64,000 nucleotides of DNA from the NCBI GenBank assembly GCA_050015455.1, contig JBEKBJ010000003.1, positions 36,202 to 100,201 of the forward strand, in the 5' to 3' direction. A program made the translations under genes and the position numbers. Under the pieces are notes generated by a model. It was not told the DNA's origin, searched no databases, and saw nothing but the letters and a program-made list of their open reading frames with translations. The DNA is from Candidatus Binatia bacterium (GTDB lineage: Bacteria; Desulfobacterota; Binatia; HRBIN30). This document shows positions 1,367 through 60,885 of this stretch, piece after piece; the first letter of the stretch is position 1, and every line of letters begins with the position of its first letter.

Positions 1367-2455
1367 TTACCGGGCCAGCAGGCGGGAGGGGTTGTCGACG
1401 GTCAGCCGTTGGATGTCTTCGCGCGCGATGCCGACCCGCTCCAGCGTCGGCACCACAAAGCTGCACAGGCGGCCGTAGCCCTCTCCGCCGTAGCGGCGCA
1501 GCAGAAGCTTCATGAAGGTGTCGGTGCCGAGCACGAGCTGCGCCGCGTAACCCGCCCGCAACAGCGCTACGAGCCCGGCCAGACGTTCCCAGTCTGCCAT
1601 CGCCGCGATCCCCATAGGCTCCGCGTCCCAGTAGTGTCCAAAGGTGTCGATCGACAAATTCAGACCACGCTCGAGCAACCGCATGGCTGTATCGACGTTG
1701 ATACGCGCGGCGTCCGGTTCAAGGATCAACCGCGTCAGGTCGCGGGTGACGAACTTCATGTCGTTGTGGGCAATGACCGTCCGGTCGAACGGCATGCCCT
1801 CGCTCTCCAGGATATCGGCGATCTTCGCTCCCGCCTCCGGTCCCAGCAGTATTCCCTGGTGCACCGTGAGTGAAAGGCCGGTCTCGTGGGCAACCCGAGC
1901 CGCGGCTCGCAGAGCATTCACCTCCGGCTCGCAGAAATCCTCCTCGATCGCCACCTTGACGTGGCCAGGCAAGACGCCGGTTCCGTCGAGCCCGTCGCGG
2001 ATCTCTTGGCGCATGTACGCGACCATGTCGTCGATGCGCATGCCAAGGAACCGCTCAGGCCAGGAGTCGCGCGAGTACAAACCCGTCGTGGCAATGATGT
2101 GCACCCCGCTGGCTTGCGACACGCGGCGCAACGCCAGCGGATCGAGCCGCAGTCCAGGCGTGCTCATGTCGACCACGGCGCTCCCGCCCACTGCTTTGAA
2201 GTCGGCCAGCTCCGCCGCCATGAGCGCCTCGTCGCGCATGACGAAGGCATCTCGGCTCATGATGAAGCCGTGTTTGAGTATGCCGAGGTTGTCTAGCCGG
2301 ATCGGTTCATCCAGCTGCACCGGCGGGTTGCTCGGGACAAAAGCCTCGAAGCGCCGGCGGAAGCAGCTGCCGTCATACAGGGTGTGCTCGTGCATCGAGG
2401 TGAAGCCGAGTTGCTCCGGGGTGATCGGTCCGCGGACGGTCATGATTTCAGCCAT
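1367..2455 (-). CDS. Phosphotriesterase-family metal-dependent hydrolase (PTE/Php-like)
   Basis: SMHEHT metal-binding motif near the N-terminus and a TIM-barrel amidohydrolase-like pattern. The start is set at MAEIM, which is preceded by GAGGAG; the longer ORF upstream is Arg-rich and lacks an RBS. Confidence 0.7.
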   Translation of the reverse strand: MAEIMTVRGPITPEQLGFTSMHEHTLYDGSCFRRRFEAFVPSNPPVQLDEPIRLDNLGILKHGFIMSRDAFVMRDEALMAAELADFKAVGGSAVVDMSTPGLRLDPLALRRVSQASGVHIIATTGLYSRDSWPERFLGMRIDDMVAYMRQEIRDGLDGTGVLPGHVKVAIEEDFCEPEVNALRAAARVAHETGLSLTVHQGILLGPEAGAKIADILESEGMPFDRTVIAHNDMKFVTRDLTRLILEPDAARINVDTAMRLLERGLNLSIDTFGHYWDAEPMGIAAMADWERLAGLVALLRAGYAAQLVLGTDTFMKLLLRRYGGEGYGRLCSFVVPTLERVGIAREDIQRLTVDNPSRLLAR

Positions 2456-2643
2456 CGTGCTTGCTCCTCTTCGCTCTGCGCGGCATTGCCTCTTCGGTTC
2501 GCGCGAGATCGCATACAAGAGGAGCGGTGTTCTCGTCAAAACGAACGCGGTCCCTTGGTTTCAGCGCCGCCTGTGTAAGTCAGGGACGCCGCTTCCCGCC
2601 TTGAGTCGGCACACCTCATTCGCTGGCTTCAACTGATCACACA

Positions 2644-3203
2644 ATGGAAACTCCGAAGCGCCAGCCGACACGTGCCGTGCGGGTGGGGCAAGTACAGATC
2701 GGTGCCGGCGCGCTGGTCGCGGTGCAGAGTATGTGCACCACCAAGACACGCGACTTCTGCCCCGCCTGCGCCTGGAGTTGGACCGCCTCATCGCCGGCCG
2801 CTGCGTAGGTGCAAGCGAACAGGCGACTTGACGGACGGCCAGCTATTGCGGCATGACCTTTGACGCCATGGCTTTCGCATCCAGAGCGTTTCCCAAGATG
2901 ATGCTCGGATTCGTCGTGCGCCGGTGCACCGTCGACATGGGCCATCAACCTTCGCCCGAAGAGTTTGCGGTGTGGGCCAACGACTACAAGCATGGCACCG
3001 GGATCTATCGCCTGTTCGGCCGCCCGATAACGGTGGACGAAGCGCGCCTGATCCTGCGGCACAGGTCGCGGATCGTGACCGCCCGCAGTGCCGCCCCGCA
3101 CGAACGTATACTCCCCGAGGTGGGCGTCGCGAGCGGCAACGGAACCGCCGTCGTGGTCTCGTTCTCCGAGGCCATGGCGCGCTTGAAAGCGCGGGCTAAG
3201 TGA
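2644..3203 (+). pseudogene. ispG: Decayed ispG (HMBPP synthase) remnant: recognisable N-terminus, internal loss/frameshift, degenerate C-terminus
   Basis: METPKRQPTRAVRVGQVQIGAGALVAVQSMCTTKTRD matches the canonical IspG N-terminus ([28 protein letters not shown]). Translation stops after about 54 aa. The downstream 116-aa ORF (2853-3203) aligns weakly to the IspG C-terminus (VGVASGNG vs GVTGGN; EAMARLKARA vs QLEARIRAKA). The three [4Fe-4S] Cys ligands are absent and the locus spans 560 bp where about 1.1 kb is expected. Confidence 0.5.
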
Positions 3204-3289
3204 AGCTGTCAGGATTCAGCAATCAGCCTGTGACGGCGTGGTTGACGTTCTCGCTTGCCGGCTGATGGCCGCGCGCTGATCGCTCTGTC

Positions 3290-5614
3290 ATGCGTCCCCG
3301 CGACCTTGCCGCATTAGAATTCGATCGCGTTCGCAACCGGCTGGCGGACTTCGCCTGCTCGTCGGCGGGGAAGGAAGCGTGTTGCGCCCTGGCACCGAAG
3401 AGTGAACGGAGCGCGGCCGAAAACGCGCTCGAGGCCGTCTGGCAGTGCTTCCGCTTGCTCGAGGAGCAGGGAACCATCCCGTTGTCGGAGTTCCCCGACA
3501 TCCGCTTCTCCTTGCGCACGGCGGCACGCGAAAGCTCTGTCCTCGATGGCAAGTCGCTGGTCGAAGTCCGGACGGTGCTCGCGGCAGTTGAGGAAATGCG
3601 GGCATTTTTGAGGAAGCAGGCAAAATCGTTTCCCGCGCTGGCGGAGCTGCCGGACCAGCTCGTGCCGTTGCCCGAACTGCACCACACGCTGACGCTTGCC
3701 CTCGACGAGAACGGCGTTGTGAGCGACGACGCCAGCGATGAGCTGGCGGAGGTGCGGCGCACGATTCGCCAACTGCGGGCGAAGCTCACGCGCCGGCTGG
3801 AAGATCTGCTGACGCAGCCGACGATGGCCGAGATGCTCGGTGATCGCTTCGTGACCCTGCGCAACAACCGCTTCGTGCTCCCGATTAAGACCGCCATGGC
3901 CAGGCAGTTTGATGGCGTGGTGCAGGACCGCTCGGCTTCCGGCGAGACCACGTTCATCGAGCCGTTGTTCGCGGTCGAGCTGAATAACCACCTGCTTATG
4001 GCCAGCAAGGAAGAGGAATGGCTGGTGCGGCGGATCCTCGGCGACCTCACGGCGCTGGTGCGCGCCGACCACGAGACCATTCTCGCCAGCTTCGGCGCCC
4101 TCGTCGAGATTGATGCGTTGGCGGCGCGGGCAAAGTTCGCGCAGCGCTACCGGTGCACGCAGCCGCACTTCGATGGGGAATTGGTGCTCGAACAGGCGCG
4201 CCACCCGCTGCTGCTGTTCGGCGACCGCGAGGTCACGCCCATCAACCTGCGCATCCCGAACGGCAAGCAAGTGCTGGTGATCACCGGCCCGAACACCGGG
4301 GGCAAGACCGTCGCGCTGAAGACGTTGGGGCTCATGGCGCTCATGGCACAGAGCGGCATGCTGATCCCTGCCGCCGAGGGCGCCCGCCTACCGTGCTTCC
4401 GGGCGATCTATGCTGACATCGGCGACGAGCAGAACCTCGAGCGCAGCCTCTCGACGTTCTCGGCGCACGTGGCGAATCTGACCGAGATCATCGAAGCGTG
4501 CGAGGCCCCGGCGCTGGTGCTGCTCGATGAGCCCGGGGTGGGCACGGATCCGGAGGACGGCGCGGCGCTCGGCATCGGCATGATCCAGATCCTCGAGGAC
4601 ACTGGAGCTCATGTCGCTCTCAGCACCCATTACGCGCCGCTGAAGCTGTTCGCGCTCAGCCATGACGCCTGCATCACGGCGGCGGTCGATTTCGATGTCG
4701 AAGCCATGCTGCCACGCTATCGGCTACGCTATCACTCGATCGGGGAAAGCTTGGCGCTGCCGATTGCGCGCCGGCTCGGCATGCCCGCCGCCGTTCTCGA
4801 CGCCGCCGGCGCCGCACGCACCGAGCAGGCGAAGGCGCTGGCCGCCGCCGTGGCCGCGCTCGAAGCCAACCGCCGCCGCTACGAAGAACGCCTCAGCGAA
4901 GTCGAGGAACGAGCCCGGAGCGCGGCAGGGGCACAAGAGGAAGTCAAGCATTTGTTGGAGGAGCTACGCGAAAAACGCCGCCGCCGTTGGGCGGACGAAC
5001 TGCACGCCGCCCGCGACTTCGTACGCACGCTGCGTGAGCAAGGCCGCGAACTGCTTGCCGCTGTGGAGCGCGGCGTCGCTGATCGGCAAGCATTCAATCG
5101 ATGGCTCCGGCAGCAAGAAGCGGAAATCGGCGCGCGTGAGGCGGAGTTTGCCGCCCAGTTACTCCCAATGTCCGCGCCGCCGCGAATCGGCGATCAGGTT
5201 CAGGTCGGCGACACCGGCATCCGTGGCCAGCTGCTGTCGGTGGACGGGGAGCGTGCCCGCATCCAGCGTGGCAACCTGCGCTTCGAAGTGCCGGCGGCGC
5301 AGCTGCACCGCATCGGCGAGACGGCACCAGCGGCAACGGAAGTGCACGTTGCCGCCGCACCGGAGGACACGCCGCAAGAGATCACGTTGTTGGGGCTACG
5401 GGCCAAAGAGGCCGTCGCTGAACTCGAACAATTCCTGGACCGAGCGGCACAGGCGCGTCACCCGTCGGTGCGCATCATCCACGGCGTCGGCAGTGGTGCA
5501 CTGAAGCGCGCCGTGCAGGACTACCTGTCAACGTCGCCGTACTGCACAGCTTTTCGCGCCGGCGAGCCGCGCGAAGGTGGCGCCGGAGTCACGGTCGCCG
5601 AGATTGCGTGCTGA
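3290..5614 (+). CDS. mutS2: Endonuclease MutS2 (MutS ATPase domain plus C-terminal Smr domain)
   Basis: Walker A TGPNTGGKT, the MutS domain V pattern and a C-terminal Smr domain (RIIHGVGSGALKRAVQDYL). Confidence 0.9.
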   Translation: MRPRDLAALEFDRVRNRLADFACSSAGKEACCALAPKSERSAAENALEAVWQCFRLLEEQGTIPLSEFPDIRFSLRTAARESSVLDGKSLVEVRTVLAAVEEMRAFLRKQAKSFPALAELPDQLVPLPELHHTLTLALDENGVVSDDASDELAEVRRTIRQLRAKLTRRLEDLLTQPTMAEMLGDRFVTLRNNRFVLPIKTAMARQFDGVVQDRSASGETTFIEPLFAVELNNHLLMASKEEEWLVRRILGDLTALVRADHETILASFGALVEIDALAARAKFAQRYRCTQPHFDGELVLEQARHPLLLFGDREVTPINLRIPNGKQVLVITGPNTGGKTVALKTLGLMALMAQSGMLIPAAEGARLPCFRAIYADIGDEQNLERSLSTFSAHVANLTEIIEACEAPALVLLDEPGVGTDPEDGAALGIGMIQILEDTGAHVALSTHYAPLKLFALSHDACITAAVDFDVEAMLPRYRLRYHSIGESLALPIARRLGMPAAVLDAAGAARTEQAKALAAAVAALEANRRRYEERLSEVEERARSAAGAQEEVKHLLEELREKRRRRWADELHAARDFVRTLREQGRELLAAVERGVADRQAFNRWLRQQEAEIGAREAEFAAQLLPMSAPPRIGDQVQVGDTGIRGQLLSVDGERARIQRGNLRFEVPAAQLHRIGETAPAATEVHVAAAPEDTPQEITLLGLRAKEAVAELEQFLDRAAQARHPSVRIIHGVGSGALKRAVQDYLSTSPYCTAFRAGEPREGGAGVTVAEIAC

Positions 5615-5623
5615 CGCAGGGAC

Positions 5624-6808
5624 TCAGCTCCCGCGCGGCAGCCCCAGCACTTGCATGGCGATGATCCCGCGCATGATCTCCGAGGTCCCGGAGGCGATGC
5701 TGGCCGCGGGCGCCTGCAAGAACGTGCGCTGCAGCCACTGCTCCGGATTGAAGTGCTCGCTGCCGGGATCGGGGGTGTCGTAGAGCAGGCCCGATGGTCC
5801 CAGGATCGACATGCCGATACGCGGCATCGCCTGGGTGAGCTCGGTCCAGTGCAGTTTAATGATCGAGGCCTCCGGGCCGGGCATACCCCAGCGCAGCAAC
5901 TTGTCGAGCGTACGCTGGCAGGTGTGCCGAAAGGTTTCGACACCCAGGTAGATGTCAGCCAGCGCCTGGCGCATCAGGGGGTCGCGGCTCGCGCCGCGCT
6001 CGCGCGCCAGCCGGAGGAGCTGATCGCGTCCGCGGGCCAAGAGGATCTGCATCTCGACCACGTACAGGATGCCGCGCTCGTTCTGCAATGCGGCGGTGGC
6101 AATCTGCCAACCGTTGTGCAGCTCGCCTAGGAGGTTTTCACGCGGCACCCGGACATCCTCGAAAAAGACCTCGCTGAATTCCGCCTGGCCGCCGATCTGC
6201 CGTAGCGGTCTGACCGTGATTCCCGGGCTCTTCATATCGACGAGCAGGCAGGAGATACCATTGCGCCGTTTCGACTCGGGGTCGGTACGGCACAGGACCA
6301 TGCACCAGTTGGCGTGCTGCGCCAGGGTGGTCCAAACCTTTTGGCCATCCATGACGAAGGAGTCGCCCTCCAGAATCGCCTTGGTGCGCAGGGACGCCAG
6401 ATCCGACCCGGCGCTGGGCTCGGAAAAGCCGAAGCACCAGAGATCTTCCGCCGTCAGGATGCGGCGCAAGAAGCGTTGCTTTTGCGCCTCGGTACCGTAA
6501 GCAATCAGGGACGGGCCCGCGATCCCGATCCCGAGGCTGCCAGCGACCTCGGGCGCCTGGGCGTGCGCCATCTCCTCCGTGTACGCGATCTGCTCCGGAA
6601 TCGAAGCTTCCCGTCCGCCGTATTCCACCGGCCAGGTGATTCCCACCCAGCGTGCCTCGGCGAGCTTCGCCTGCCAGGCACGCAGGCGCGGAATACGTTC
6701 CGCTTCGGGCAGCTTGGCGGCGTGTTCGGCCTGCAGCTCACCCGGAAGATTGGCCGCCAGCCAGCTGCGCAACTCCTTACGGAATACCTCGAGATCTTGT
6801 GTCCCCAT
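5624..6808 (-). CDS. Acyl-CoA dehydrogenase family protein
   Basis: ACAD N/M/C domain pattern over about 394 aa; convergent with mutS2. Confidence 0.75.
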   Translation of the reverse strand: MGTQDLEVFRKELRSWLAANLPGELQAEHAAKLPEAERIPRLRAWQAKLAEARWVGITWPVEYGGREASIPEQIAYTEEMAHAQAPEVAGSLGIGIAGPSLIAYGTEAQKQRFLRRILTAEDLWCFGFSEPSAGSDLASLRTKAILEGDSFVMDGQKVWTTLAQHANWCMVLCRTDPESKRRNGISCLLVDMKSPGITVRPLRQIGGQAEFSEVFFEDVRVPRENLLGELHNGWQIATAALQNERGILYVVEMQILLARGRDQLLRLARERGASRDPLMRQALADIYLGVETFRHTCQRTLDKLLRWGMPGPEASIIKLHWTELTQAMPRIGMSILGPSGLLYDTPDPGSEHFNPEQWLQRTFLQAPAASIASGTSEIMRGIIAMQVLGLPRGS

Positions 6809-6900
6809 GGCGGAGTTTTGTAAACGTCTGCTGCCCCGACGTCAATGTGCTGGCGTCACGGCGCAATTCGGTGTAATGAACCTCACCGCTGAGGTGTGAT

Positions 6901-8886
6901 GTGTCGAGCAAGCGAAGTTGGGGTTGGATCTGCGCCGTCATAGCACTGCTCGCACTCGGTCGGACAGCAACGCTGGCGCAAGTGGTTCCGATCCGCGGTG
7001 ATGCCAATTGTGACGGGCGGGTCGATGCAAGCGACATCGACGCCGTCATCGCGCTCCTGTTCGGTGAGGCCGGCGCCTGCCCGAGCGCAGAGGCCAACGC
7101 GGACGCCAACCAGGACGGTAGCGTGACTGCGGCGGACATCACCGCGGTGGAGCTGCTCCTACCGCTGGCGGGGCCGACGGGTACCCCGAGCGTAACCCCG
7201 ACGCCCTCAGAAACCCCGACCATCACGCCGAGCCCGCTGCCGAGCGTAACGCCGACCATCACACGCACCCCCGTTCCAAGCCTGACCCCAACGATCACGC
7301 GCACTCCGACTCGGACCGTGACGCCGAGCGTCACACTCACCCCGACACGCAGCTTCACTCCAACTGCGACCGCAGTCGCGACGGGTACCCCTACCGCGAC
7401 CAAGACTGCCACGTCCACCGCAACCCCGAGTAAAACCCGCACCTTCACACCGACTCGAACCTCAACTGCAACCCCCACCGCCACGTGGTCGCCTACCTTG
7501 ACGCGAACGCCAACGGTCACGCGCACACCCACGTCAACCTCCACTGTAACGCCCACTCCAACCCCATCGGCTACGCGACCGCCGACGAGCACGCCGACCC
7601 CGACCCCATCGCCAACCGTGACTCGGACCCCGTCTTCCACAGCGACGCCGTCGCCCACGCGCACCCCGTCACCGACGCCGACACCGTCGCAGACCGCGAC
7701 GGCGACCCGGACGCCTTCGAACACATCAACGCCAACGCCCACACGCACTCCGTCACTGACGCCGACACCGTCGCAGACTGCGACAGTGACTCGGACGCCT
7801 TCGAACACGTCAACGCCAACGCCCACACCCTCACCGACGAACACTTCGACGCAGACGCCGACGCACCCACCGTCAAAGGGGCCGATAGTAAACTACTTCG
7901 GCCTGACGACGGGGGATAACTCGGTGCTGACGCCGGATGACACGGACGCGGAAGGCAACCCAGTCTACACGCGTCCGATCGGCTTCGGCTTCTTCATCGT
8001 CATCGAAGCGAGGCCGGGCACGAGCGGGCTTCTGCCGCAGCCTATGTTCGAAAACAGCAATCCCTCCCAGCTGCCCGACGTCCAGATCGAAGCGAATCAG
8101 TCATTGGGAACGGGGGCGGGCCGCGGTAGCTTGGCGGTTTGCGACAACGGGCCGCCGCCGACGCCGCTCGGCGGTGTACCGGGGATCAACCCGCCAAGCT
8201 TTGACCCGACATCGCAGTTCATCGCCAATGCGCTGAACGACTTTGGCTGCCGGTTTGCCGACAACACCTCGGCCCCGTGTACAAAAGTCGACGACAGCGG
8301 GATCAACAAATACGTGATGGCGAACTCCAAAGCGCAGTATTGCACGAACACGGTCCTCGGTGCCGAGTTGGCATTCCCGCCCGGAGACACCCTGCTCACC
8401 GTCGAACTGCGCGACTACAACGCCGCAACTCAGACCCACGTCAACACCGGGTATCCTGTGAGTCTAGTGGTCCGCGTGCCGACCCCGGCACCAACCGGCA
8501 CCCCAACCGAGACCTTCCCTCCGACGCTGACGCCGACCATCACACTTACCAGAACACCCAGTACAACGCGGACCGTTACCGCCACGCCGACGATCACGTC
8601 GACCCCGCTCCCCAGTTCGACGTGGACGAATACGCCGCTACCGACGGTCACCGCGACGTTTACGCCGACGCTTGTTCCAACTGCCACTGGAACGCTCACC
8701 CCGAGTGCGACGGCGACGGCGACACCGACAGCAAGCCCGACGTCAAGCCCCAGCCCAACCCCGACACCGAGCGCAACCACGGCGCCCAGCGGGACGCCGA
8801 CAGCCACTTCGATGCCGAGCACGACCGAGACGGAAACCCCGGCAGTAGCCGATACCGCGACTGCAACTGAGACACCCGGGATCTGA
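6901..8886 (+). CDS. Secreted modular protein: signal peptide, N-terminal dockerin-like double repeat, long Thr/Pro-rich linker, central globular domain of unknown function, C-terminal TP-rich tail
   Basis: GTG start at 6901 with GAGG 5 nt upstream, followed by a hydrophobic signal peptide. GDANCDGRVDASDIDAVIALL and NADANQDGSVTAADITAVELLL fit the dockerin repeat consensus. About 260 aa of TPT/TPS low-complexity sequence follows. The central ~240 aa domain is Cys-containing with no motif I recognise. Confidence 0.7.
   Translation: MSSKRSWGWICAVIALLALGRTATLAQVVPIRGDANCDGRVDASDIDAVIALLFGEAGACPSAEANADANQDGSVTAADITAVELLLPLAGPTGTPSVTPTPSETPTITPSPLPSVTPTITRTPVPSLTPTITRTPTRTVTPSVTLTPTRSFTPTATAVATGTPTATKTATSTATPSKTRTFTPTRTSTATPTATWSPTLTRTPTVTRTPTSTSTVTPTPTPSATRPPTSTPTPTPSPTVTRTPSSTATPSPTRTPSPTPTPSQTATATRTPSNTSTPTPTRTPSLTPTPSQTATVTRTPSNTSTPTPTPSPTNTSTQTPTHPPSKGPIVNYFGLTTGDNSVLTPDDTDAEGNPVYTRPIGFGFFIVIEARPGTSGLLPQPMFENSNPSQLPDVQIEANQSLGTGAGRGSLAVCDNGPPPTPLGGVPGINPPSFDPTSQFIANALNDFGCRFADNTSAPCTKVDDSGINKYVMANSKAQYCTNTVLGAELAFPPGDTLLTVELRDYNAATQTHVNTGYPVSLVVRVPTPAPTGTPTETFPPTLTPTITLTRTPSTTRTVTATPTITSTPLPSSTWTNTPLPTVTATFTPTLVPTATGTLTPSATATATPTASPTSSPSPTPTPSATTAPSGTPTATSMPSTTETETPAVADTATATETPGI
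7666..7833 (+). repeat. Tandem direct duplication of an 84-bp unit (x2, near-identical) inside the TP-linker coding region
   Basis: ccgtcaccgacgccgacaccgtcgcagaccgcgac...cgcact is followed immediately by ccgtcactgacgccgacaccgtcgcagactgcgac...ccctc. Each unit encodes a ~28-aa [13 protein letters not shown][AV]TRTPSNTSTPTPT[RP] module. Confidence 0.8.
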
Positions 8887-19812: not shown

Positions 19813-22800
19813 TCACGGCCCCAGCTCACCGCTCGTCAACAACGAGGTAACGTTTCCGTTTGGCGAGGTGATTGTCACCGAAATGACCGCCGGCTCGTCA
19901 CTGGTCAGTCCGGTAGGAGCCGTGAGCACAAAGGTGAATTGCGTCAGGCCGCCCACCAACTGGTTGAATGACTCACCGTCCGGCACGGTGATGCCGCCGC
20001 CCGTCACGGTGCCATTGGACGCGCTGATGGCGATTGTCGATCCGCCGACCAGGGGGTTGACCAGATCGTCATGCACATTGATCGTAAATGACATTGATGC
20101 CCCGGTCGAGAGGTAGAACGAGTAACACGATCCTGGCGACCCTGGCAACGAGCACCCTTCCAGTACCGGCGCTTGCGTGGGGCCGGAGAAGGTCACGGGG
20201 ATGGCGCGCCACACCAGGATGTTGTTATCCCAGTACCCATGCGTGCCTTGCCCGATTCCAGTCGTGCCGACGCTGTCCCAGACCCCGTTCCCATTGGTGT
20301 CGACGAACAGTTCGAAGTCGTCCGTGACGTTGAACTGGTTGTCGCAAAGGGAGCTTGGCGGTGAGATCGGGCAGGTGGAGTCAGCTGGCGGGTAGGGCCG
20401 GAAGTCGATGAAGGGCTCGGGTATATCGTCCGTCAGGATGACGTCAGCTTGCGGGCCGGGTGCGGGCGGACACGGCGGAGCGTTGAAGCCGGGAGCGCAG
20501 TCGAAAATGCCATCGCCGTTGTTGTCCTTGAACGACTCTTCGCCATGAGTGAAGGCCATGACCGTCACGATGCCGGTCGGTGGGACGACTCCCTCGGTCA
20601 CCAACGTCGCGGTCGCGACGCCGGAGGCATCCGTGGTAGTTGGGCTGACCACGCTGGCGGCGTTGGTGACGAAGGACACTGCCGTTCCCGGCGGGACAGC
20701 GTTGCCGAACCGGTCGTTGACGTACGCCGAGATTTGATCCGACAGGCCGAACGTCACGCGGCCCTGAATGTTCAGCTGCTTCGCCGCGATACTGAAGTGA
20801 TTGTATGCTGGCGGCGCACCGAGGATGCTGACCGCCGTTGATTGCGCCGAAACTCCCGGGTTCGTCACCACGGTAGCGACTACCCGCACGGTCGTAGCCT
20901 GGATGCCACTGGTCACCGTGGTGCTGACCAGCCCGTTCTGATCACTCACCGCCGACAGCGGATTGAGGCTTTCCGATCCGCTGCCGGACAGCGTGAATTG
21001 GACAGCGACGCCAGACATGGGGTTGTTTGTGGTGCTGTTTACCTTGAAGACCAGCGTCGACTGTTCCGGCAGCCCGGAGCCACGCACACCAATGGACGGA
21101 GGCGTGGCGCCCAGGAATTGGATCGAGCCGGCCGGGGGTGTTGGGCTCAGCGTTGGAGTGCTCGGGGGCGTAAAGGTGGCCACGCCTGAGGGCCAAGGAC
21201 TCGGCGTCGCCGTGATGGTGGGCGTATTCGTTGGCGGTGGCGTCGCTGTCATTGTTGGCGTCGCCGTCGGCCGGGTGTCAGGCAACGTGATCGTCTTCTC
21301 CGCCTCGATCACCGCCCCCGTCGCGGTCGTGACGCGAGCACGGATAGTGATCGTGGTTCCCTGCATATCGTACACGTACTTGATGCACGCCAGAGCATCG
21401 CCCGGCTGTGGTGTGACGCTGAAGCTGATGGTGCAAGGCTGCGCCTCATTGGTGAATCCGGGGCTGGTGATCGACACACCCGAGACCGGATTCACCAGGC
21501 TGAACTCCACCGGCACGCCATCGGCGATGGTTGCACCGTTGGCGTCGGTCACCAGCGCGCTCACCACGCTGGAGAACGTCCCGTCACCATTATCGACGCG
21601 CTGGTTCTCGGCCAGATCCACATCGATGAAGGCCGCAGGCGGTCCCTGCTGCGTGACTCCAGCCGTCGCGATGCGGCCGAGCGCATCCGTAGCGGTGATC
21701 AAGAACGTCCCGACTTCGTTGCCGGCAGTGAAGGTGAACGAACCACCGGACGCCGGCACCACGGTCGTATTCAGACACCCGACTCCGCTGGCGGAGATCG
21801 TGAACGGCGCCGCCCCGCCGCTCACCACGAACGTTTGCGGGATGCCGTTACAATTGGGCGGTGGTTCAACTCCGGCCCACAGCGTCGCGCCGCTCGGTGC
21901 GATACTGGGAGGCTGTACGGTCGGTGTCGCAGTAGGCAGAACCGTGGGCGTCGACGTGATCGTCGGCGTGGCGGTGGGACGTGTATCGATGAGAATAATC
22001 TGCCGTTCGTCCGAAACGAAGCCGCCGGTCGCGGTTTGCACGGTTGCCTGCACGGTCACGGTCGTGCCCTGCAGTGCTGCAACATACTTAAGGCACGACA
22101 GCGCGTCACCGGGCTGCAGCACGATGCTGAAGTCGATCGTACATGGCTGCGCCTGGCCGGTGTATCCTGGGCTGGTCAGTGACACCCCAGAGACCGGATC
22201 GACCAAGGTGAATGTGACCGGCACTCCATCTCCAACGACGACGCCGGAGACATCGGTCACCAGGGCGCTCACGATCGTCGTGAAGGTCCCGTCCTGGTTG
22301 TTGGTCACGTGACTGAGGATCTGATCCAAGCGCACGTAAGCAGCGCCGGGGGTTGGCGGCACGGTCGCCGTCGCCGGCACGGTCGCCGATGCCGGCGGTG
22401 TGTTCGTAGGCAGCGGTGTGAGCGTGAACGTCGGGGTCGGAGGCCCTTGGACCGTGACCCCGGCCGATGCGGTCTTCCCTGCAGCGTCGGTCACGGTGAT
22501 GGTGAAGTTACCGAGCACGTTGCCCGCCGTGAAGATGAACGAGCCACCCGAAGCGGGAACGCTGCTGACGCTGACACAGCCGCCACCAGCAAACACGCTG
22601 AATGGTGGACTGCCGCCCGTAACCACGAAGGTCTGGGTTGCACCGTTGCAGCCGTTCGGCGGTGCGCCGTCGCCTGCAGCCAGGGTCGATTGGGTTGGCG
22701 CGATCATCGGTGGCTGCGGCGTCGGTGTGGGCGACGGAGCCAGTGTCGGAGTCGCCGTGGGAGTGAAAGTGGCGGTGATCGTCGGCGTCGGCGTCGGCAT

Positions 22801-25800
22801 CGCGAGGAAGGTGATGACATCGGATACCGTGACCGAGCCGTTGCCGCCGCCCGGCAGCGAATCCAAATCTGACGTGACCTTGATCGTGACGACGTCGACC
22901 TCGGACGTCGTGGACTGCGGCGCATTGTCGAGCACAGTGAAGTGGAACCGATTGATCCCGTCGATCAGCTGATCGAAGGTTATGGCGTCCGGTAAGGTGA
23001 AGTTGCTCAGGCCGATGACGCGGGCGCGACTGCCATCAACGGAGATGGCCACCGTCGACCCGCCGACGATCGGGTTTCCCACTCCCGTATTGACCAGCGG
23101 ATCGGGATTGTCGCTGACGATCAACGTGTAGTTGAGGGATCCGCCGGCCTCTATGGGACCAGTACTGCCCGGAATCAGCCAGACGCTGGTCGGTCCGGAG
23201 AAGGTAGTGCAAACGTTGTTGAACACCACCACCTGGTCGCCGCACGCCGGTGTTCCCGAGCCTTGATCGCTGTCCCACTTACCGTTGCCGTTGAGGTCGA
23301 TGAAGTCCTCACCGGGGTCGTAGGTGCCGTTGCAGTTGGCATCGTAGAACGGTTCCGGTATCGCCAGCAGCTGATCGCCGCTGTCGCACACGCCGTTACC
23401 GTTCACGTCGATAAAGGGCCGTTCTCCGCTACTGGTCGCCAGCGTGACGACGATCCCGTTGGCCGGGACGGGGGCTTGCGTCACGAGCGTTGCCGTCGCC
23501 TGGCCGAGATCGCTGGTGGTGGTGGGGTTGCCGATCGCGCCACCCTTGGTCGTGAAGTCGACGGTTGTCCCCGGCGGCACCGGATTTCCAAAGCGGTCGG
23601 CGACAAACGCGGTGATCGTATCGGCAATCCCATAGTAGACGCCGCCCGAAACGTTGGCTAACTTATGCACCACGCTGAAGTTCGGCTGCGACGGTGGCCC
23701 GCCGAGAATACTGACGGCCGCCGAGCGCACGATGAGCGGCGGCGACACGCTGTCGACTTCCGCTGTGACCTGGACGCTCATCGCCCGCTCACCGCTGGTC
23801 AACGTCACTTGCACATTGCCAGCACTGTCCGTCACCGCCTGCAGCGGCGAGATCTGCTCGTCTGCAATCCGCGCGATGGAAAAATTCACCGTGACTGCCG
23901 AGAGGGGAGCGCCCACGGCGTCCGTGACCTGGAAGGTGAGCACCGATTGCTCCGGCAAACCCGAACCGCGCACGCCGATGGTGGCAGGCTGCGCGCCGAG
24001 AAATTGCATCGCTCCAGGCTGAGCCACCGGCGTCGGTGTACCCGGTGTCGGTGTGGTGGTGGCTGTGACGTTGACGATGGGGACGGTAACGTCGGTGATC
24101 GGCAGGCCACCACCCCCCACCTGTACGGTCGCCGTGCCAGACTCCGTCCCGGCTGGAATAACCAAAGTGGCGCTCGCCTGGCCGTTACTGTCGGTCAGGG
24201 CCGACTGATCGATGGTGCCGACGGACGTAGTGAAGTGGATGCGCACGTTCTCAACCGGATCCAAGTTGGCATCGAACACCGAGACGCGGACGAGGGCAGG
24301 GGCGTCATCGGTGTTGTTGACGAGAACCGTGGCGGGTACCACCTTCACTTCCAAATCGCTGACCGCACCTGGCAGCGTGACTGCCTGGCCGCCTTGGTTA
24401 TCGACGCTGCCCACGGTGGCGTGTACCTGTATTTCCGTCGCCTGCAGCGCGATCGGGTATTTCACGCAGGTGATGGCATCGCCGAGCTCGAGTGAGATCG
24501 GCAGGCCGGTTTGGGTAACGTACTGACTGGTGTCACACGGCGGCTCCGCGTCGGTCACCGCACTGCCTGACAGGACCACGTTCTGCGCCGGATCGTCGGA
24601 GCCGTTTGTCAGCATGGCGAAGAACACGCCGGTCCCGTCTTCAACCGGATTACCCTGTGCGTCCGTGACGCTTGCGGTCAGCACAGTCAGCAGCGTGCCG
24701 TCATTGTTGTTGCTGAATTTCTGACTGATGCTGATCCCGATGTGGCTGGCTGGCCCCGAGGAGACGGTCACCACCGTCTGCTGCTCGCTGAGCGGTGCAG
24801 GCACACCGTATACTGTGGTATCCGCGCAAGCTGCAATCGTTATCGGGCCGGGTTGCGGGCCGGCGTGCACCTGGATGACGGCAACTCCTGCAACGTCGGA
24901 AACCGAGACCGGGTCGTCCGCTGCGCACAGCGTCGTAGGGATAGGCGTCGGCGAGCTGGTCGGCACTGGTGTCGTCACAGGCAGAATGGCAGCGCCGGCA
25001 GCACTCGCTGCGGCGACAACGTGGTAGTGGACGTTGACGCCACTCAGCGGATTGCCGTTGTTGTCGAATACGCGGCCGATGACGGTGGCCAGCTCCGTCC
25101 CGCCCGTACCCGCCACTTGGATATGGGTCGGGCTCGCACCAAGCGTGATAGCAGCCGGTTCCCCTGGTGGCACGCCAGGATTGACCGTACCCGAGCCGGC
25201 CACGACCGTGATCGTCGCCGAACCGGATACACTTCCGGCTACCGCGCTGACGGTGAAGGGTCCTTCCGGCATACCGACGGGCACCTGCAACACCGAGGTC
25301 GCAACGCCGCTCTGCGTCTGGTCCGTCAGCGGATTCACGTAGCCTGCCGGCGTAACGAACAACACGTCGATACCGTTGATTGGAGCGTTGTCGGCGTCGA
25401 GCACCGCCGCGGTGAGATTAATCGCGCCGCCCGAGAGATTGCCTACCGTGGATGGGTCGGCTTGCAAGACCACGGTCGCGACCGGTTTCGTACTGACACC
25501 GGCGACCACGTTGACCGAAACGTTGCCGGTCTTGCCGCACGCCTGAGCTGAGACGGCCAGGGAACCGACGCTCGAGTTCACCGGAATGTTCAGCGTGGTC
25601 ATCGCCGTGCCGTTGTTGTCGGTCGTCTGCACCAATTGGCTGAACGACGCCGCGTTTCCCGGTTGCACCTCGAAAAGGATGGCGACTCCCGCCACTCGGA
25701 TGTTGTTCGAATCGAAGGCGATCGCAGTAATCTTAGCGCTGCCACCCGTCTGGCTGCTCACGTTCGGCGTGTCGGTCTGGACAATGATCGTCTGCACGAC

Positions 25801-26490
25801 TGCACACGGCTCGGGGGTCGGTGTCACCGTTGGGGTCCAAGTCGGCGTCGGGGTCGGGGTCGGCGTTGGCGTCGGGGTCGGGGTTGGTATCGGGGTCCAA
25901 GTCGGCGTCGGCGTCAGGCTCGGGGTTGGTGTCGGCGTCAGGGTCGGGGTTAGCGTCGGCGTCACTGAGGGCGTCGGTGTCACTGAGGGCGTCGGCGTCG
26001 GCGTGCTCGTCGCGGTTGGTGCGGGGCCCACAGAGACCCTCAGCGTCACTGACAGCCCATTGAGCGGTGACGTCGGGTCTATAACGCCGACTGTCAAGGG
26101 GTAAAGTCCGGCCGCTGGGGCCAGAGCGGAGCCGCTAAATGAGCCGTCACCACCGGTAATACCGACGCTGCCAGGAGACAACACGGTCAAGTTTGTTGTG
26201 ATCGCCACCTCTTGACCGGCAACGGGATGACCCTGGGAGTCTTTCAGGAACACGCTGAATGCAGTGGTGTCACCCGCCGCGAGTTCGACGTTCTGAATGC
26301 ATAACGTTATCGCCCCGGCATTAGAGCTCTCGGTCCATTGATTGGGACACACTGGCAGGGGGGTCGGCGTCAATTGCCCGGTCTGCGAGGAGCTGGTGCT
26401 GCTGCCGCCGCCACCACCCCCGCAGCTACTCACCAGCAGCACCAGGCCCGCTGCCAGACCCAATCTAGCCATCCCCATCCGGCGTCCCAT
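19813..26490 (-). CDS. Giant (2225 aa) surface lipoprotein built from repeated bacterial Ig-like (Big/invasin-like) modules and TP-rich linkers
   Basis: Lipobox LLVSSC followed by a Gly/Ser linker. Modules of the type [18 protein letters not shown] / [15 protein letters not shown] resemble Big_1 (invasin/intimin Ig-like) domains. Large internal duplications are present (e.g. [29 protein letters not shown]... and [29 protein letters not shown]...). Confidence 0.75.
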
Positions 26491-53304: not shown

Positions 53305-54741
53305 CTACTGTGGTTGCGCGCTACCAGCGGGTGGCGCTTCACCTTTCAGATATGCGTCGATGCTGTTCGCGGCGATGCGGCCCTGGCCCATGGCCAGAAT
53401 CACCGTGGCGGCGCCGGAGACGATGTCGCCACCAGCGTAGACGCCCGGGATCGAGGTCGCCATGGTCTTCTCATCCGCGACTACCGTGCCCCACTTGGTT
53501 ACCTTCAGCTCGGGCGTCGCGCGCGGCACCAGCGGGTTGGGCTTGTTGCCAATGGCAACGACCACGGTGTCGAGCTCCATGATGAACTCGGAGCCCTTTA
53601 TCGGCACGGGGCGCCGCCGGCCCGAGGAGTCGGGTTCGCCGAGCTCCATCTGGATGCATTCCATCCCGACCACGCGACGGCGCTGGTCTCCCAGGACGCG
53701 CGTTGGGGCGGTGAGCAACTTGAACTCTATCCCTTCCTCTTCCGCATGGTGCACTTCTTCTATCCGGGCCGGCATCTGCTCGCGTGCCCGACGGTAGGCG
53801 ATGGTCACATCAGCGCCCTGGCGCAACGCCGTGCGCGCGCAGTCCATGGCCACATTGCCGCCGCCTATGACGGCCACGCGTTCGCGGTTGATCGGCGGCG
53901 TATCGTACTCGGGGAACAGATACGACTTCATCAGGTTGGAGCGTGTCAGATACTCATTGGCGGAATAGACGCCGATGAGGTTCTCCCCGGGAACCTCCAT
54001 GAACGAGGGCAGCCCGGCGCCCGTGCCGATGAACACGGCGTGATAGCCCTCTTCATCGAACAGCTCGCGGATGGTGGCGTTGCGGCCGACCACGTAGTCA
54101 AAAACGAATTCGACGCCGAGCTTCTTCAAGTAATCTACCTCGGCGTGCACGATCACCTTCGGCAGGCGGAACTCGGGGATGCCGTATATCAACACGCCAC
54201 CCGGATCTTGCAGCGCCTCGAACACCGTGACCTCGTGTCCCTTGAGGATGAGATCGCCGGCGACCGTCAGCCCCGCGGGCCCGGCGCCGATGACGGCGAC
54301 CCGCTTGCCCGTTTTGGGCGCCACCGGTGGGATGAGGACCTGACCCGTGCTGCGCTCGTAGTCGGCCACGAAACGCTCCAGCCGTCCGATGGCGACCGGC
54401 TTCTGCTTGATGCCGATGACGCAGACGCCTTCACACTGATCTTCCTGCGGGCAGACGCGGCCACAGACTGCCGGCAGAGAATTTGTCTCCTTGATCTTGC
54501 GCGCCGCCTCGACGAACTTGCCTTCCTGAATCAGCTTGATGAAACCGGGAATATCGATGTTGACCGGGCAGGCGGGGACGCATTTCGCGTTTTTGCACAG
54601 GATGCACCGCTGCGCCTCCAGCATGGCGAGATCGTCGGTGAAGCCGTACGGGACCTCGTTGTAGTTGTTGATCCGGTCCTCCGGCGCCTGCTCCGGCATC
54701 GGCTGGCGGGGAATGTCTTTCTTCTTCACTGGCTGTGCCAT
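53305..54741 (-). CDS. nfnB: NfnB / glutamate-synthase small-subunit-like NADPH:ferredoxin oxidoreductase subunit (FAD, NADPH, 2x[4Fe-4S])
   Basis: N-terminal Cys clusters (CILCKNAKCVPACP; CGRVCPQEDQCEGVC), FAD site VAVIGAGPAGL and NADPH site VAVIGGGNVAMD. Confidence 0.8.
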   Translation of the reverse strand: MAQPVKKKDIPRQPMPEQAPEDRINNYNEVPYGFTDDLAMLEAQRCILCKNAKCVPACPVNIDIPGFIKLIQEGKFVEAARKIKETNSLPAVCGRVCPQEDQCEGVCVIGIKQKPVAIGRLERFVADYERSTGQVLIPPVAPKTGKRVAVIGAGPAGLTVAGDLILKGHEVTVFEALQDPGGVLIYGIPEFRLPKVIVHAEVDYLKKLGVEFVFDYVVGRNATIRELFDEEGYHAVFIGTGAGLPSFMEVPGENLIGVYSANEYLTRSNLMKSYLFPEYDTPPINRERVAVIGGGNVAMDCARTALRQGADVTIAYRRAREQMPARIEEVHHAEEEGIEFKLLTAPTRVLGDQRRRVVGMECIQMELGEPDSSGRRRPVPIKGSEFIMELDTVVVAIGNKPNPLVPRATPELKVTKWGTVVADEKTMATSIPGVYAGGDIVSGAATVILAMGQGRIAANSIDAYLKGEAPPAGSAQPQ

Positions 54742-54750
54742 GGCTGCTAC

Positions 54751-55602
54751 TCAGATGGCGTGGCCGTGCGGCCGCGGGGCCGCCGGCGCGGTGCGCGCTA
54801 CCGAGCGGATCTCCTCTTCGCTGTAGGCGGCGCGGCGGTCAAACAGCTCTTCCCAATCGACCTGGTGGGCATCGAAGAACGGGCCATCGACGCAAGCGAA
54901 CTTCATCTCGTTGGCGACGGTCACCCGACACGCGCCACACATGCCGGTGCCGTCGAGCATGATCGGATTCAACGCCACCAGCGTCTTCACCCCGAACGGT
55001 TTGGTGGTGTTGGCGGCGAGCATCATCATGAACACGCAACCTATGGCGATCACCCGGTCCAGCGGCTCCCCGTTTTCGAGCTTCCGCTTGATGATGTCCA
55101 CCGAATGGCCCTTGGTTCCGTTGGAGCCATCGGTGGTGGTTTGAATCATCTCGTCCGAGGTCGCCAGCAACTCGTCGCGGTAGTAGTGGAGGTACTGGCT
55201 GTTGGCCTCGATGACGGTGATCACGCGGTTGCCGGCCTGCTTCAAAGCGCGGGCGAGGCTGAGTATCGCGCCGATGCCGTAGCAGCCGGCCGCCAGGGCT
55301 ACGGTGCCGTACTTCTCGATTTCCAACGGGACGCCGAGCGGGCCGACGAGGTGCGCGATCTGATCGCCGGCCTTGAGCAGGACGAACTTGCGGCTCGATT
55401 GTCCGACTTCCTGCACGACCAAGGTGATCGTACCGGCCTGCCGGTCCCAGTCGCACAACGTAAACGGCACGCGCTCCGAGTGTTCATCGACCATCACGAT
55501 GACGAACTGGCCGGGCCGCGCCTTCTTGGCGATGGCCGGCGCGTAGATCACCGCCTGGTGCGCGTTCGGCGCGATTTCACGTTTCTGCAGGATCTCGAAC
55601 AC
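54751..55602 (-). CDS. nfnA: NfnA / PyrK-like ferredoxin-NADP reductase subunit (FAD, [2Fe-2S])
   Basis: PyrK/SudB-like fold with C-terminal CGACRV [2Fe-2S] ligands. The gene sits immediately upstream of nfnB, the canonical nfnAB order. Confidence 0.75.
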   Translation of the reverse strand: MFEILQKREIAPNAHQAVIYAPAIAKKARPGQFVIVMVDEHSERVPFTLCDWDRQAGTITLVVQEVGQSSRKFVLLKAGDQIAHLVGPLGVPLEIEKYGTVALAAGCYGIGAILSLARALKQAGNRVITVIEANSQYLHYYRDELLATSDEMIQTTTDGSNGTKGHSVDIIKRKLENGEPLDRVIAIGCVFMMMLAANTTKPFGVKTLVALNPIMLDGTGMCGACRVTVANEMKFACVDGPFFDAHQVDWEELFDRRAAYSEEEIRSVARTAPAAPRPHGHAI

Positions 55603-55605
55603 GGC

Positions 55606-57228
55606 TCAACCTCCAACCGCGGCGGCGGCCGCTTCCGCCGGCGGCAGCTCGCTCAAGCCGCGGACCTTCTCCTCCAGGTTGTGGCCGCGGAAATGGGTCC
55701 GCCGGTAACGAGGGTCGCCGGCGGCGGGCGCCTTCTGCAACTGCCGGATGCGCAGGCCGGCCTTGCCGGCCCCGATCTCTGCCTTGATGGCGGCCGCCGA
55801 TTCGTACTCGAAGCCTTCGGCACCCATCGCCCGCGCCAGCTCGGTGATGATTTGCCAATCGGGCTTGGCCTCGCCGGGTGGGTCGCAGGCCTTACGCAAC
55901 GGCCGCATCAGCCCCTGGCCGTCGACCCAGGTGCCCGCCACCTCGGCCAGCACCGCGGCAGGCAGCGAGACATGCGCTCGTTCGGCAAGGGCCGTGGGAT
56001 AGCAGTCCTGCGTGATCAGCACTTCGAGCTGGGCGAGCCCGGCCGCATCGACGAAATCACCGGTGAGCAACGCCGCGCGCACGCCGCTCGGCAGCGCGCC
56101 GCGCGACGCGCCATCTCCATTCGGCCGGATCTCTACGTAATGCGGCGACCGCATCACTGCACTGGTGAACTTCTGAAACACATAGCGGTCTTCGAGGGTG
56201 CTGCTGGTGTCGCACACCAAGGCGAAGCCGTCGCCGACGAACGGCTGCAGCCGCTCGACGGTATGCGCCAGCGCCTGCTCCCAGGATAACGCGCGCAGCA
56301 CTTTTCCGATCCGCACCTGCGGCTTCTTCAGACGGGTGACGCCGTTGAGGAACTCTGGAATGGCGAAGCGGCCGAGGACGCAGATGGGCACGCGCGTGTT
56401 GATGCCACGCGCCATCACCGCCCGCTTCAGCGGCGACGCCTGCACGGTGATCGCACAAGCGGCCTCGCACAAGGTGCAGGTCGTGGCGGTGAAGCGCGCC
56501 GGAGCGCCGAACCATTTGGCGTAACGGTCGGAGAGACTCCCGGTCGGGCAGACGTCGATGCACGAGCCGCAGAAACGGCAGCCCGCGTCAGAAAGCGAAC
56601 GGCCGAAGGCCTCACCGATGTGCGTCTGGCTACCGCGGCCGACGAACTCGATCGTGCTCTGCCCGTGATGTTCTTTACAGATGCGCACGCAGCGGCCGCA
56701 CAGGATACACAGGTTCAGGTCACGGTCGAGGAACGGATCGGAGCGCTCGATCGGGAGGTGACGGTAGAAGGGCACGTAGGGAAGAGAGCAGAGGCCGATG
56801 CTCTCTGACAGATCGCGGATCCCGCAGACTTGCTTGTTGTTGCACGTGTGGCAGCCGGTGGTGCAGCCCGCCTTTTCAGACCTCGGGCGGTATTGCTCGC
56901 AGAGATCCCGCTTATCGCAGACCAGGCAGGCTGAAGGATGCTCGGCGAGGATCAACTCCAGCACGGAACGCCTCAGGTTCTGGAGGGTCGGAGTGTCGGT
57001 CTTTACGACCATGCCCTCCGTCGCCAGTGTCGAGCAGGAAGCGGGGTAGCCCCGCACCCCGTCGATCTCGACGATGCACATCCGGCAGGCGCCGAAGGCC
57101 GGCAAGCTCGGGTGTGTACAGAGGTGAGGTATGGAGATGCCGTGGCGCAGAGCTGTTTGCAACACGGTCTCGCCGGCGTTGGCCGCGACCTGGCGGCCGT
57201 CAATAGTCAGGGTAGCGGCTGTTTCCAT
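55606..57228 (-). CDS. NuoG/HndD-like multi-FeS subunit ([2Fe-2S] ferredoxin domain, several [4Fe-4S], truncated molybdopterin-oxidoreductase-like domain; no hydrogenase H-cluster motifs)
   Basis: The N-terminus has a plant-type ferredoxin pattern (CRMCIVEIDG). Multiple CxxCxxCxxxCP motifs are present, and the C-terminal domain resembles the NuoG C-terminus. None of the [FeFe]-hydrogenase L1/L2/L3 motifs are seen. Confidence 0.65.
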   Translation of the reverse strand: METAATLTIDGRQVAANAGETVLQTALRHGISIPHLCTHPSLPAFGACRMCIVEIDGVRGYPASCSTLATEGMVVKTDTPTLQNLRRSVLELILAEHPSACLVCDKRDLCEQYRPRSEKAGCTTGCHTCNNKQVCGIRDLSESIGLCSLPYVPFYRHLPIERSDPFLDRDLNLCILCGRCVRICKEHHGQSTIEFVGRGSQTHIGEAFGRSLSDAGCRFCGSCIDVCPTGSLSDRYAKWFGAPARFTATTCTLCEAACAITVQASPLKRAVMARGINTRVPICVLGRFAIPEFLNGVTRLKKPQVRIGKVLRALSWEQALAHTVERLQPFVGDGFALVCDTSSTLEDRYVFQKFTSAVMRSPHYVEIRPNGDGASRGALPSGVRAALLTGDFVDAAGLAQLEVLITQDCYPTALAERAHVSLPAAVLAEVAGTWVDGQGLMRPLRKACDPPGEAKPDWQIITELARAMGAEGFEYESAAAIKAEIGAGKAGLRIRQLQKAPAAGDPRYRRTHFRGHNLEEKVRGLSELPPAEAAAAAVGG

Positions 57229-57233
57229 GGGCG

Positions 57234-60353: not shown

Positions 60354-60396
60354 GGCTCTTTGGTCCGCGAATCCTGGATGGATGTTCTTCTGCTTC

Positions 60397-60885
60397 CTAG
60401 CGTCCGACGATCGATCGCACCTTGCGTGGTGTCACGCGGGCATGCACCTCGCCGTCCACAGTGACGGTCGGAGCGAGCGCGCAGCAACCGATGCAGGCGA
60501 TGCGCTGAAGTTCATATTCGCCGTCGTCGGTAATTTCGCCCGTGCGGACGCCCAGACGGTGGTGGAACTCTTCCATGACCTGGCGCCCGCCGCGTACGTG
60601 GCAAGCTGTGCCCTGGCACACCCGGATGGTGTGTTTGGCCGGCGGCTTGAAGCGAAACTGGGCATAGAAGGTGGCGATCCCGTAGATTTCGTTGTCCGAG
60701 ATGTTGCTCGCCTGCGCCAGCTCTCGTAGCGTCTCTTCCGTCAGGTAGCCGTCGCGGTCCTGGATATCCTGAAGGATCGGAATCAGATGCTGGGTGCTAA
60801 TGCCGTTGCTACCCTCTCCGGCGAGTGCGGATGAGTAGTGGGCAAGGATTTCCCCCAGGGTGGATGCCGATGCGGTCGCGCTCAT
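60397..60885 (-). CDS. NuoE/HoxE-like thioredoxin-fold [2Fe-2S] subunit
   Basis: The CQGTACHVRG...CIGCCALAP Cys pattern of the 24-kDa subunit family. Confidence 0.8.
   Translation of the reverse strand: MSATASASTLGEILAHYSSALAGEGSNGISTQHLIPILQDIQDRDGYLTEETLRELAQASNISDNEIYGIATFYAQFRFKPPAKHTIRVCQGTACHVRGGRQVMEEFHHRLGVRTGEITDDGEYELQRIACIGCCALAPTVTVDGEVHARVTPRKVRSIVGR

Follow-up and report, generated by a model that had tools for sequence, protein, structure and literature searches.

The question raised by this locus is whether a 64-kb stretch of DNA (hereafter the window, meaning the whole stretch) from an uncultured soil or peat bacterium of the class Binatia still carries, at the place where its relatives do, a gene for IspG, and, if not, what the remaining sequence represents. 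IspG is the (E)-4-hydroxy-3-methylbut-2-enyl-diphosphate (HMBPP) synthase, which is normally indispensable in bacteria using the methylerythritol phosphate (MEP) pathway. An earlier note, made from the sequence alone, had described a decayed ispG at 2644-3203, with a clear N-terminus, a missing middle and a degenerate C-terminus carried by a downstream open reading frame (ORF) of 116 amino acids, here termed ORF116. The N-terminus and the missing middle stand, while the C-terminus had been misplaced, the true relic ending at position 2831. Our preferred reading, to which we give a probability of about 0.9, is that positions 2644-2831 are a dead ispG deletion relic, that ORF116 is a separate gene, and that IspG activity most probably comes from a copy elsewhere in the genome. 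All coordinates follow the window numbering unless prefixed with a locus label; loci labelled L001 and onwards are contigs of relatives, taken from ENA, JGI and Logan assemblies and from GTDB genomes, and labels such as P0121 denote proteins of these relatives.

In most of the relatives' contigs, a phosphotriesterase-family gene (PTE) or a DAO-type oxidoreductase gene is followed by ispG, an ORF116 homologue and mutS2, and the neighbours common to the window and the relatives are PTE, ORF116, mutS2 and an acyl-CoA dehydrogenase gene. The ispG genes of this conserved row encode proteins of 377-390 amino acids in which both GcpE domains are present. Such an order with an intact ispG was found in L006-L008, L014, L015-L022, L024/L116/L117, L030, L031, L035, L115, L118 and L122, some of these contigs ending before one end of the ispG-ORF116-mutS2 row, and the ancestral arrangement would have been PTE on the minus strand, diverging from ispG, ORF116 and mutS2 on the plus strand. 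The nearest loci with an intact ispG are L006 (PTE 94% and MutS2 90% identical to those of the window) and L024 (PTE 93%, ORF116 85%). Alignment of the DNA sequences paired window positions 2440-2757, which run from the PTE start across the intergenic region to ispG codon 38, with L006 1923-2238 (84%), and window positions 2757-2796, from ispG codon 362 on, with L006 3208-3247 (88%). Because these two window segments align to separated stretches of L006, approximately 970 bp of ispG (codons ~39-361) are gone, that is, about 323 codons or 83% of the gene. The missing middle is thus a physical absence, and the collinearity of the remaining DNA with the intact ispG and flanks of the relatives marks it as orthologous to ispG by descent.

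Two stubs of the gene survive. The 5' remnant (2644-2757, plus strand) comprises the start codon and codons 1-37 (D37 at 2752-2754), followed by an altered codon 38, which reads TTC in the window and GTC in intact genes. The 3' remnant (2757-2831, plus strand) runs from codon 362 to the ancestral stop TGA at 2829-2831, and this old stop region, ACTTGA, is still recognisable and homologous to the ispG stop of L014. Translated in the frame of 2733, the 3' remnant reads LLPRLRLELDRLIAGRCVGASEQAT followed by a stop, the matching intact sequence being VLPRLRAELDRLIAER..., while its frame-2 translation is LLPRLRLELDRLIAGR...T followed by a stop. This 74-nt stub holds 24 codons and the ancestral stop; because its frame is offset by one base from that of the ATG at 2644, it is not translated as IspG. 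In five intact orthologues both breakpoints bear the triplet GTC (...CGCGAC-GTC-GAT... and ...GAG-GTC-CTGCCC...), which in the intact gene are codons 38 and 361. A clean deletion mediated by these triplets would take 969 bp and keep the frame; the window junction reads GAC-TTC-TGCCCC, one base shorter and with one substitution, which accounts for the 3' stub being out of frame with the ATG. We picture the event as a single deletion of ~970 bp between the two GTC triplets of an ancestor with the PTE/ispG-ORF116-mutS2 arrangement, which removed the TIM barrel and the [4Fe-4S] ligands and joined the stubs one base out of frame. Spared by it were the intergenic DNA upstream, the initial 37 codons from the ATG on, and the final 24 codons together with the old stop. 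Indeed, the ligands C285, C288, C322 and E329 (L006 numbering), invariant in a 25-sequence IspG alignment and contained in the clade's motifs CPSC...MGC...GPGE, all lay in the deleted span, as did the whole catalytic TIM barrel. With 83% of the gene and every catalytic element absent, the relic has no enzyme function, and the pseudogene call of the earlier note is upheld.

The ATG at 2644 opens a 54-codon ORF (2644-2808, plus strand; stop TAG at 2806-2808) that was made by the deletion. Its first 37 residues, METPKRQPTRAVRVGQVQIGAGALVAVQSMCTTKTRD, match the IspG/GcpE N-terminus, as had been proposed for the first ~35 codons, and the remainder is a frame-shifted tail, FCPACAWSWTASSPAAA, ending at the stop. 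The stub is identical to the intact IspG of L006 (388 amino acids) at 33 of 37 positions (89%; tblastn E = 3.5e-14), and the ORF matched Pfam GcpE PF04551 over model positions 1-30 of 343 (E = 2.1e-6; 27.4 bits, below the gathering threshold of 32), NCBIfam NF001540 (E = 7.7e-9) and TIGR00612 (E = 1.7e-6; score 27.5 against a cut-off of 280, which the intact relative P0121 passes with 304). What marks a functional IspG, namely a full-length match above the curated cut-off, the N-terminal, substrate-binding TIM-barrel domain and the Fe-S ligands, is altogether absent. Within the stub, the substitutions P24L and A32T fall at invariant or near-invariant IspG positions (25-sequence alignment A3). 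The CPAC of the 54-residue product was considered as an IspG CPxC motif and rejected, since it arises when codons 362-365 (LPRL) are read in the wrong frame. The tail of the ORF differs between lineages (45 amino acids in L023 and P0343, 52 in the L123 lineage, shortened in L004), and the 54-codon ORF is probably a meaningless by-product of the deletion.

The same deletion is found well beyond this window. The window MutS2 protein recurs on 14 contigs drawn from ENA, JGI and Logan assemblies, of which five were compared; four of these match the window at every base of 2400-3300 (100%), and the fifth, L004, has as its sole difference an extra 32-bp deletion within the 3' stub (2760-2791, plus strand). 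L004 also shows a compensating +32-bp length difference far upstream, with gene ends shifted from 2424 to 2456. The exact window junction, GACTTCTGCCCCGCC, is also present in the diverged lineages L023 (ORF116 89% identical to the window at the amino acid level, synonymous divergence dS 0.24) and L123 (ORF116 79%; MutS2 97% over 302 amino acids), and the 45-residue P0343 bears it as well. Because the junction is common to all of them, the deletion predates the split of the window, L023 and L123 lineages. On these comparisons the relic is taken to be inherited, common to lineages differing by dS~0.24, and, judging from the 32 bp lost in L004, the 11 further bases lost in L123 and the stub changes at IspG-invariant or near-invariant positions across relics (P24L, A32T, Q28H, S29G and T9P), to be still eroding through small deletions and substitutions.

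ORF116 (2853-3203, plus strand) had been taken for a degenerate IspG C-terminus lacking the cluster-ligating cysteines or, alternatively, for a repurposed remnant, and neither description fits. The database search returned 209 homologues at E <= 0.01 with 54-98% identity; those listed are unnamed proteins of 96-134 amino acids whose few taxon labels are Binatia or 'Deltaproteobacteria', and the family forms 88 representative clusters among 1.84 billion proteins, most below 170 amino acids. The window ORF116 is a typical member of this unnamed family, with full-length homology, the shared invariant residues M17, F20, R23, R24, C25, G30, H31, W41, H70 and E84, the core motif LPKMMLGFVVRRC...GH.PS.EEF..WAN...LFGR.I...EA..ILRH, a GC content at third codon positions of 0.80 (typical of window genes), and purifying selection, the ratio of nonsynonymous to synonymous substitution rates (dN/dS) being 0.21-0.37 in six within-genus comparisons and 0.21 between the window and L023. 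Profile-profile comparison with IspG (hhalign, 40-member versus 25-member alignment) gave a probability of 0.14% (E = 0.42, 7 aligned columns), BLASTP against intact IspG gave no significant match (E = 3.7), and no Pfam (E <= 1) or NCBIfam match was found, including to the IspG C-terminal domain PF26540. A sequence search for a PDB relative was likewise negative, and fold comparison gave weak matches only, a helix-turn-helix or winged-helix DNA-binding fold being no more than a candidate. Since the gene coexists with a complete ispG in relatives, where it sits between ispG and mutS2, and since the profiles show no similarity, ORF116 is not an IspG fragment. It is best regarded as a separate, conserved, Binatia-restricted gene under purifying selection, the actual C-terminal relic being the 74-nt stub at 2757-2831.

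The association of ORF116 with ispG nevertheless extends to a natural fusion. The metagenomic protein P0247 (486 amino acids) joins in frame an IspG (to ...LPRLRAELDRL) and an ORF116 homologue, and has unfused twins in P0246 and in P0248, the latter on a 34-kb contig; this could be a Rosetta-stone hint that ORF116 and IspG cooperate, or merely another deletion of the ispG 3' end. Separately, three GTDB Binatia genomes have ispG followed by an ORF116-like gene (L046:5170-5520, L047:5187-5393 and L081:5167-5367), with no mutS2 after it within the stored flank (~4 kb for L046 and ~2 kb for L047; L081 ends inside the gene), from which it follows that the small gene is more widely linked to ispG than to mutS2.

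The window allele is not the only deletion at this place. A protein database search with the 54-residue ORF product retrieved the junction of the window (type 1) and four short proteins of 52-60 amino acids (P0344-P0347) with another, in-frame junction (type 2), in which codons 1-41 (...TKTRD(V/I)(D/G)AT) are joined to the last 11 codons (ERAPAGDLTDG, then the stop). Type 2 retains codons 38-41, which type 1 lacks, and lacks codons 362-374, which type 1 retains; because each keeps codons that the other has lost, neither allele can be derived from the other. P0345 and P0002, the latter an ORF116 protein 91% identical to that of the window, appear to share one contig, the listing giving a 1,152-bp JGI contig for each. 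A third state is displayed by L026 (PTE 93%), where the intergenic region leads straight into the ORF116 start and no ispG relic is left. L009 (MutS2 94%) has different genes upstream and no ispG, and the more distant L011-13/L028-29 clade shows the order DAO-ORF113-mutS2, with only 77 bp in the place that ispG takes in its relatives L014 and L015. Overall, at its conserved locus in one uncultured genus, ispG has gone at least three times independently, by the type 1, the type 2 and the complete deletion. The retained IspG has a dN/dS of 0.126 (L006 vs L024), and the possibility that selection on the sister lineages' ispG had been relaxed, as a sign of redundancy, was rejected because this value lies at the level of the family (0.116-0.134).

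The alleles also appear to have been shuffled. All intact-ispG loci of the genus share an insertion of 132-318 bp between ispG and ORF116 (L006:3292-3423, L024:3652-3792, L124:635-775, L115:3221-3538 and L122:1552-1833), while the type-1 deletion alleles and the outgroups are without it and have a spacer of 21-39 bp instead. In L115 and L122 the insertion contains a 46-nt imperfect palindrome (CCCTTCGAGACG...CGTCTCGAAGGG), reminiscent of a small mobile element or one resembling repetitive extragenic palindromes. The divergent PTE-ispG intergenic region (2456-2643), which aligns collinearly with its counterparts in L006, L023 and L026, occurs as two clearly different haplotypes, one in the window and L026 and the other in L023 and L006, which cut across both the ispG deletion state and ORF116 similarity. 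Moreover, in a short neighbour-joining tree of ORF116 and the MutS2 N-terminus, the intact L024 nests among deletion lineages. Homologous recombination is the explanation we draw from the insertion pattern, the crossing haplotypes and the nested position of L024.

Where, then, does the organism obtain its IspG activity? Most probably from a copy elsewhere in its genome, since ispG relocates among loci within Binatia (mutS2-linked, dapB-linked or in other contexts). Several results weigh against the preferred reading on this and other points. Searching the whole 64-kb window by tblastn with two intact IspG proteins recovered the stub only (best stray hit E = 0.21), and no ispG was found in the 6.7 kb upstream (L001). 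In some other Binatia (L036, L075) ispG lies near dapB; the dapB-linked place in the window holds rlmE and pilM, and no ispG. A scan of GTDB with an IspG query, using one genome per species and including no genome of the window's genus among its results, returned a single ispG locus in every genome, among them five complete Binatia chromosomes, so the class is not known for duplicating ispG; the closest IspG in that scan was only 82% identical (L035, syntenic). The contigs of the closest IspG proteins (P0204, P0128, P0133, P0122 and P0130) all place ispG beside ORF116/mutS2 or PTE, with no non-syntenic copy. To these may be added that neither a sigma-70 promoter nor a terminator consensus was found in the leader/promoter region 2456-2643, and that the 5' stub of the window is only 5% diverged from that of L023, against 25% for the intergenic DNA just upstream; this low divergence could hint at constraint and is better explained by recombination mosaicism. 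No gene of the MEP or mevalonate pathway is among the annotated window genes, nor any mevalonate gene in the 6.7 kb upstream. These annotated genes are ordinary housekeeping ones (hisS, aspS, ddl, aroQ, aroB, pilMNPQ, rlmE, dapBAF, lysA, argH, ilvD, acnB and an NADH-dehydrogenase-like cluster), and the Binatota genome paper (PMC8262859) makes no mention of MEP, mevalonate or ispG.

Four other explanations were weighed. An assembly or sequencing artefact, in which a full-length ispG exists and the frameshift or gap is an error, would draw on the metagenomic source of the DNA and on a neighbourhood that is hard to assemble, the Logan contigs of several relatives being cut off 79 bp past ispG. 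The latter observation concerns L118-L121, four independent Logan contigs with the same IspG, which stop exactly 79 bp past the ispG stop codon and whose shared end hints at heterogeneity among strains or at a repeat there. However, what is absent is ~970 bp and not a single base, and ENA MEGAHIT, JGI and Logan assemblies of different samples, at least four of them independent, agree exactly on the junction, as do L023 and L123, whose ORF116 proteins differ by 11-21% from that of the window; an artefact can be set aside for practical purposes, and with it the sequencing error whose correction, according to the earlier note, would undo the pseudogene call. Scarcely any weight is left for a derivation of ORF116 from the IspG C-terminal domain, whether degenerate or repurposed, which has on its side that ORF116 follows the N-terminal stub on the same strand and that P0247 fuses the two, and against it the coexistence and profile results given above.

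A third proposal is a relic kept for a purpose, in which the short ORF or its translation would set the expression of ORF116-mutS2 in the manner of a leader peptide or an upstream ORF. Both type 1 (window, L023, L123, P0343) and type 2 (P0344-P0347) retain the start, ~37-41 codons and the stop region, the remnant ORF of P0346 and P0347 runs into the ORF116 start, and four of the six stub changes between the window and L023 fall at third codon positions, alongside the uneven divergence just described. Yet L026 has dropped the relic entirely and keeps ORF116 and mutS2, the remnant peptides differ at many positions and end in unrelated tails (ORFs of 45-60 amino acids), four third-position against two first- or second-position changes are too few for significance, and the upstream recombination mosaic alone accounts for the divergence pattern; we consider a maintained function very improbable. 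Hardly more favoured is a lineage without any IspG, which would make isopentenyl and dimethylallyl diphosphate (IPP and DMAPP) by an acquired mevalonate pathway or some bypass not known so far. The repeated loss within one genus, the absence of ispG also in L009 and the L011 clade, the lack of a second copy in any accessible sequence and the single-copy state of ispG in the scanned Binatia genomes speak for it, whereas the ~70 kb read are a small part of a multi-megabase genome, the annotated window genes include none of the mevalonate pathway, the ispG of sister lineages is under normal purifying selection, and relocation of ispG between loci clearly occurs in the class. This explanation is unlikely, and the broader picture that it would open, a free-living Binatia genus with a dispensable HMBPP synthase, at least three deletions, no IspG in the deletion lineages and an acquired or undescribed bypass route, is likewise one on which we would place few stakes.

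Under the preferred reading of a dead relic beside a separate ORF116, the old ispG promoter would still drive ORF116-mutS2, with the stubs carried along as a 5' leader. Such a role is suggested because the genes lie head to tail with short gaps and because the internal deletions and that of L026 keep the intergenic region and the ORF116 start; a search of the leader for RNA elements gave no Rfam match at E <= 1.

Set against known systems, the relic is like IspG/GcpE (PF04551 and PF26540; TIGR00612) in its first 37 and last 24 codons and orthologous to it by DNA and synteny, and differs in that 83% is missing, including the TIM barrel and all four cluster ligands (three Cys and one Glu), and in that the stubs are out of frame. 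It resembles ordinary bacterial deletion pseudogenes in a single large deletion between short repeats (GTC...GTC) followed by small deletions and point changes; here, however, the gene concerned is one that MEP-pathway bacteria normally cannot do without, and a single genus has lost it on at least three separate occasions. Listeria innocua has reportedly lost gcpE/lytB and relies on the mevalonate pathway. That case is similar in the lineage-specific loss of late MEP genes that close relatives keep, but a complete mevalonate pathway is documented there, whereas neither an alternative pathway nor a second copy was seen here in the ~70 kb read.

Of the flanking genes, PTE (1367-2455, minus strand; Pfam PF02126, E = 1.3e-36) is the intact divergent upstream neighbour, with 362 amino acids by the gene call in the identical contig L001 and 94% amino acid identity to L006, and mutS2 (3290-5614, plus strand; MutS_V and Smr domains), assigned by Pfam and synteny, is the last member of the conserved ispG-ORF116-mutS2 row. 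Further along the window, 6901-8886 (plus strand) encodes a 661-residue protein whose N-terminal dockerin-type domain gives way to very long low-complexity repeats rich in Pro, Thr and Ser, overlapped on the other strand by a long Gly/Val-rich shadow ORF (6777-7844, minus strand). A giant protein of 2,224 residues with repeated bacterial Ig-like domains (Big_1 / invasin D3) is encoded at 19813-26490 (minus strand), adjoining aroQ. Finally, 53305-60885 (minus strand) holds a cluster of fused Fe-S flavoproteins resembling NADH dehydrogenase and glutamate synthase, with a Nuo51 + Fer4_20 + Pyr_redox_2 fusion of 1,039 residues, a NuoG-like protein, a DHODB Fe-S protein and a 2Fe-2S thioredoxin-like ferredoxin, which may form an electron-bifurcating or formate/NAD(P)H-linked complex.

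Taken on its own, the locus is an ordinary deletion pseudogene of ispG beside an uncharacterised conserved small gene, and what sets it apart is only that a normally essential gene was lost recurrently and independently in one uncultured genus. The result corrects an annotation: JGI pipelines name the relic ORFs of 45-59 amino acids (P0343, P0345 and P0346) 'IspG/GcpE synthase', several metagenome pipelines label stubs of 45-60 amino acids IspG/GcpE, and automated pathway reconstruction would wrongly score such genomes as having this ispG. It also defines ORF116 as a Binatia-restricted small protein, tightly linked to ispG and once fused to it. For the organism itself, the repeated loss of ispG, set against its strong constraint in sister lineages, predicts either a relocated or second ispG or another route to IPP.
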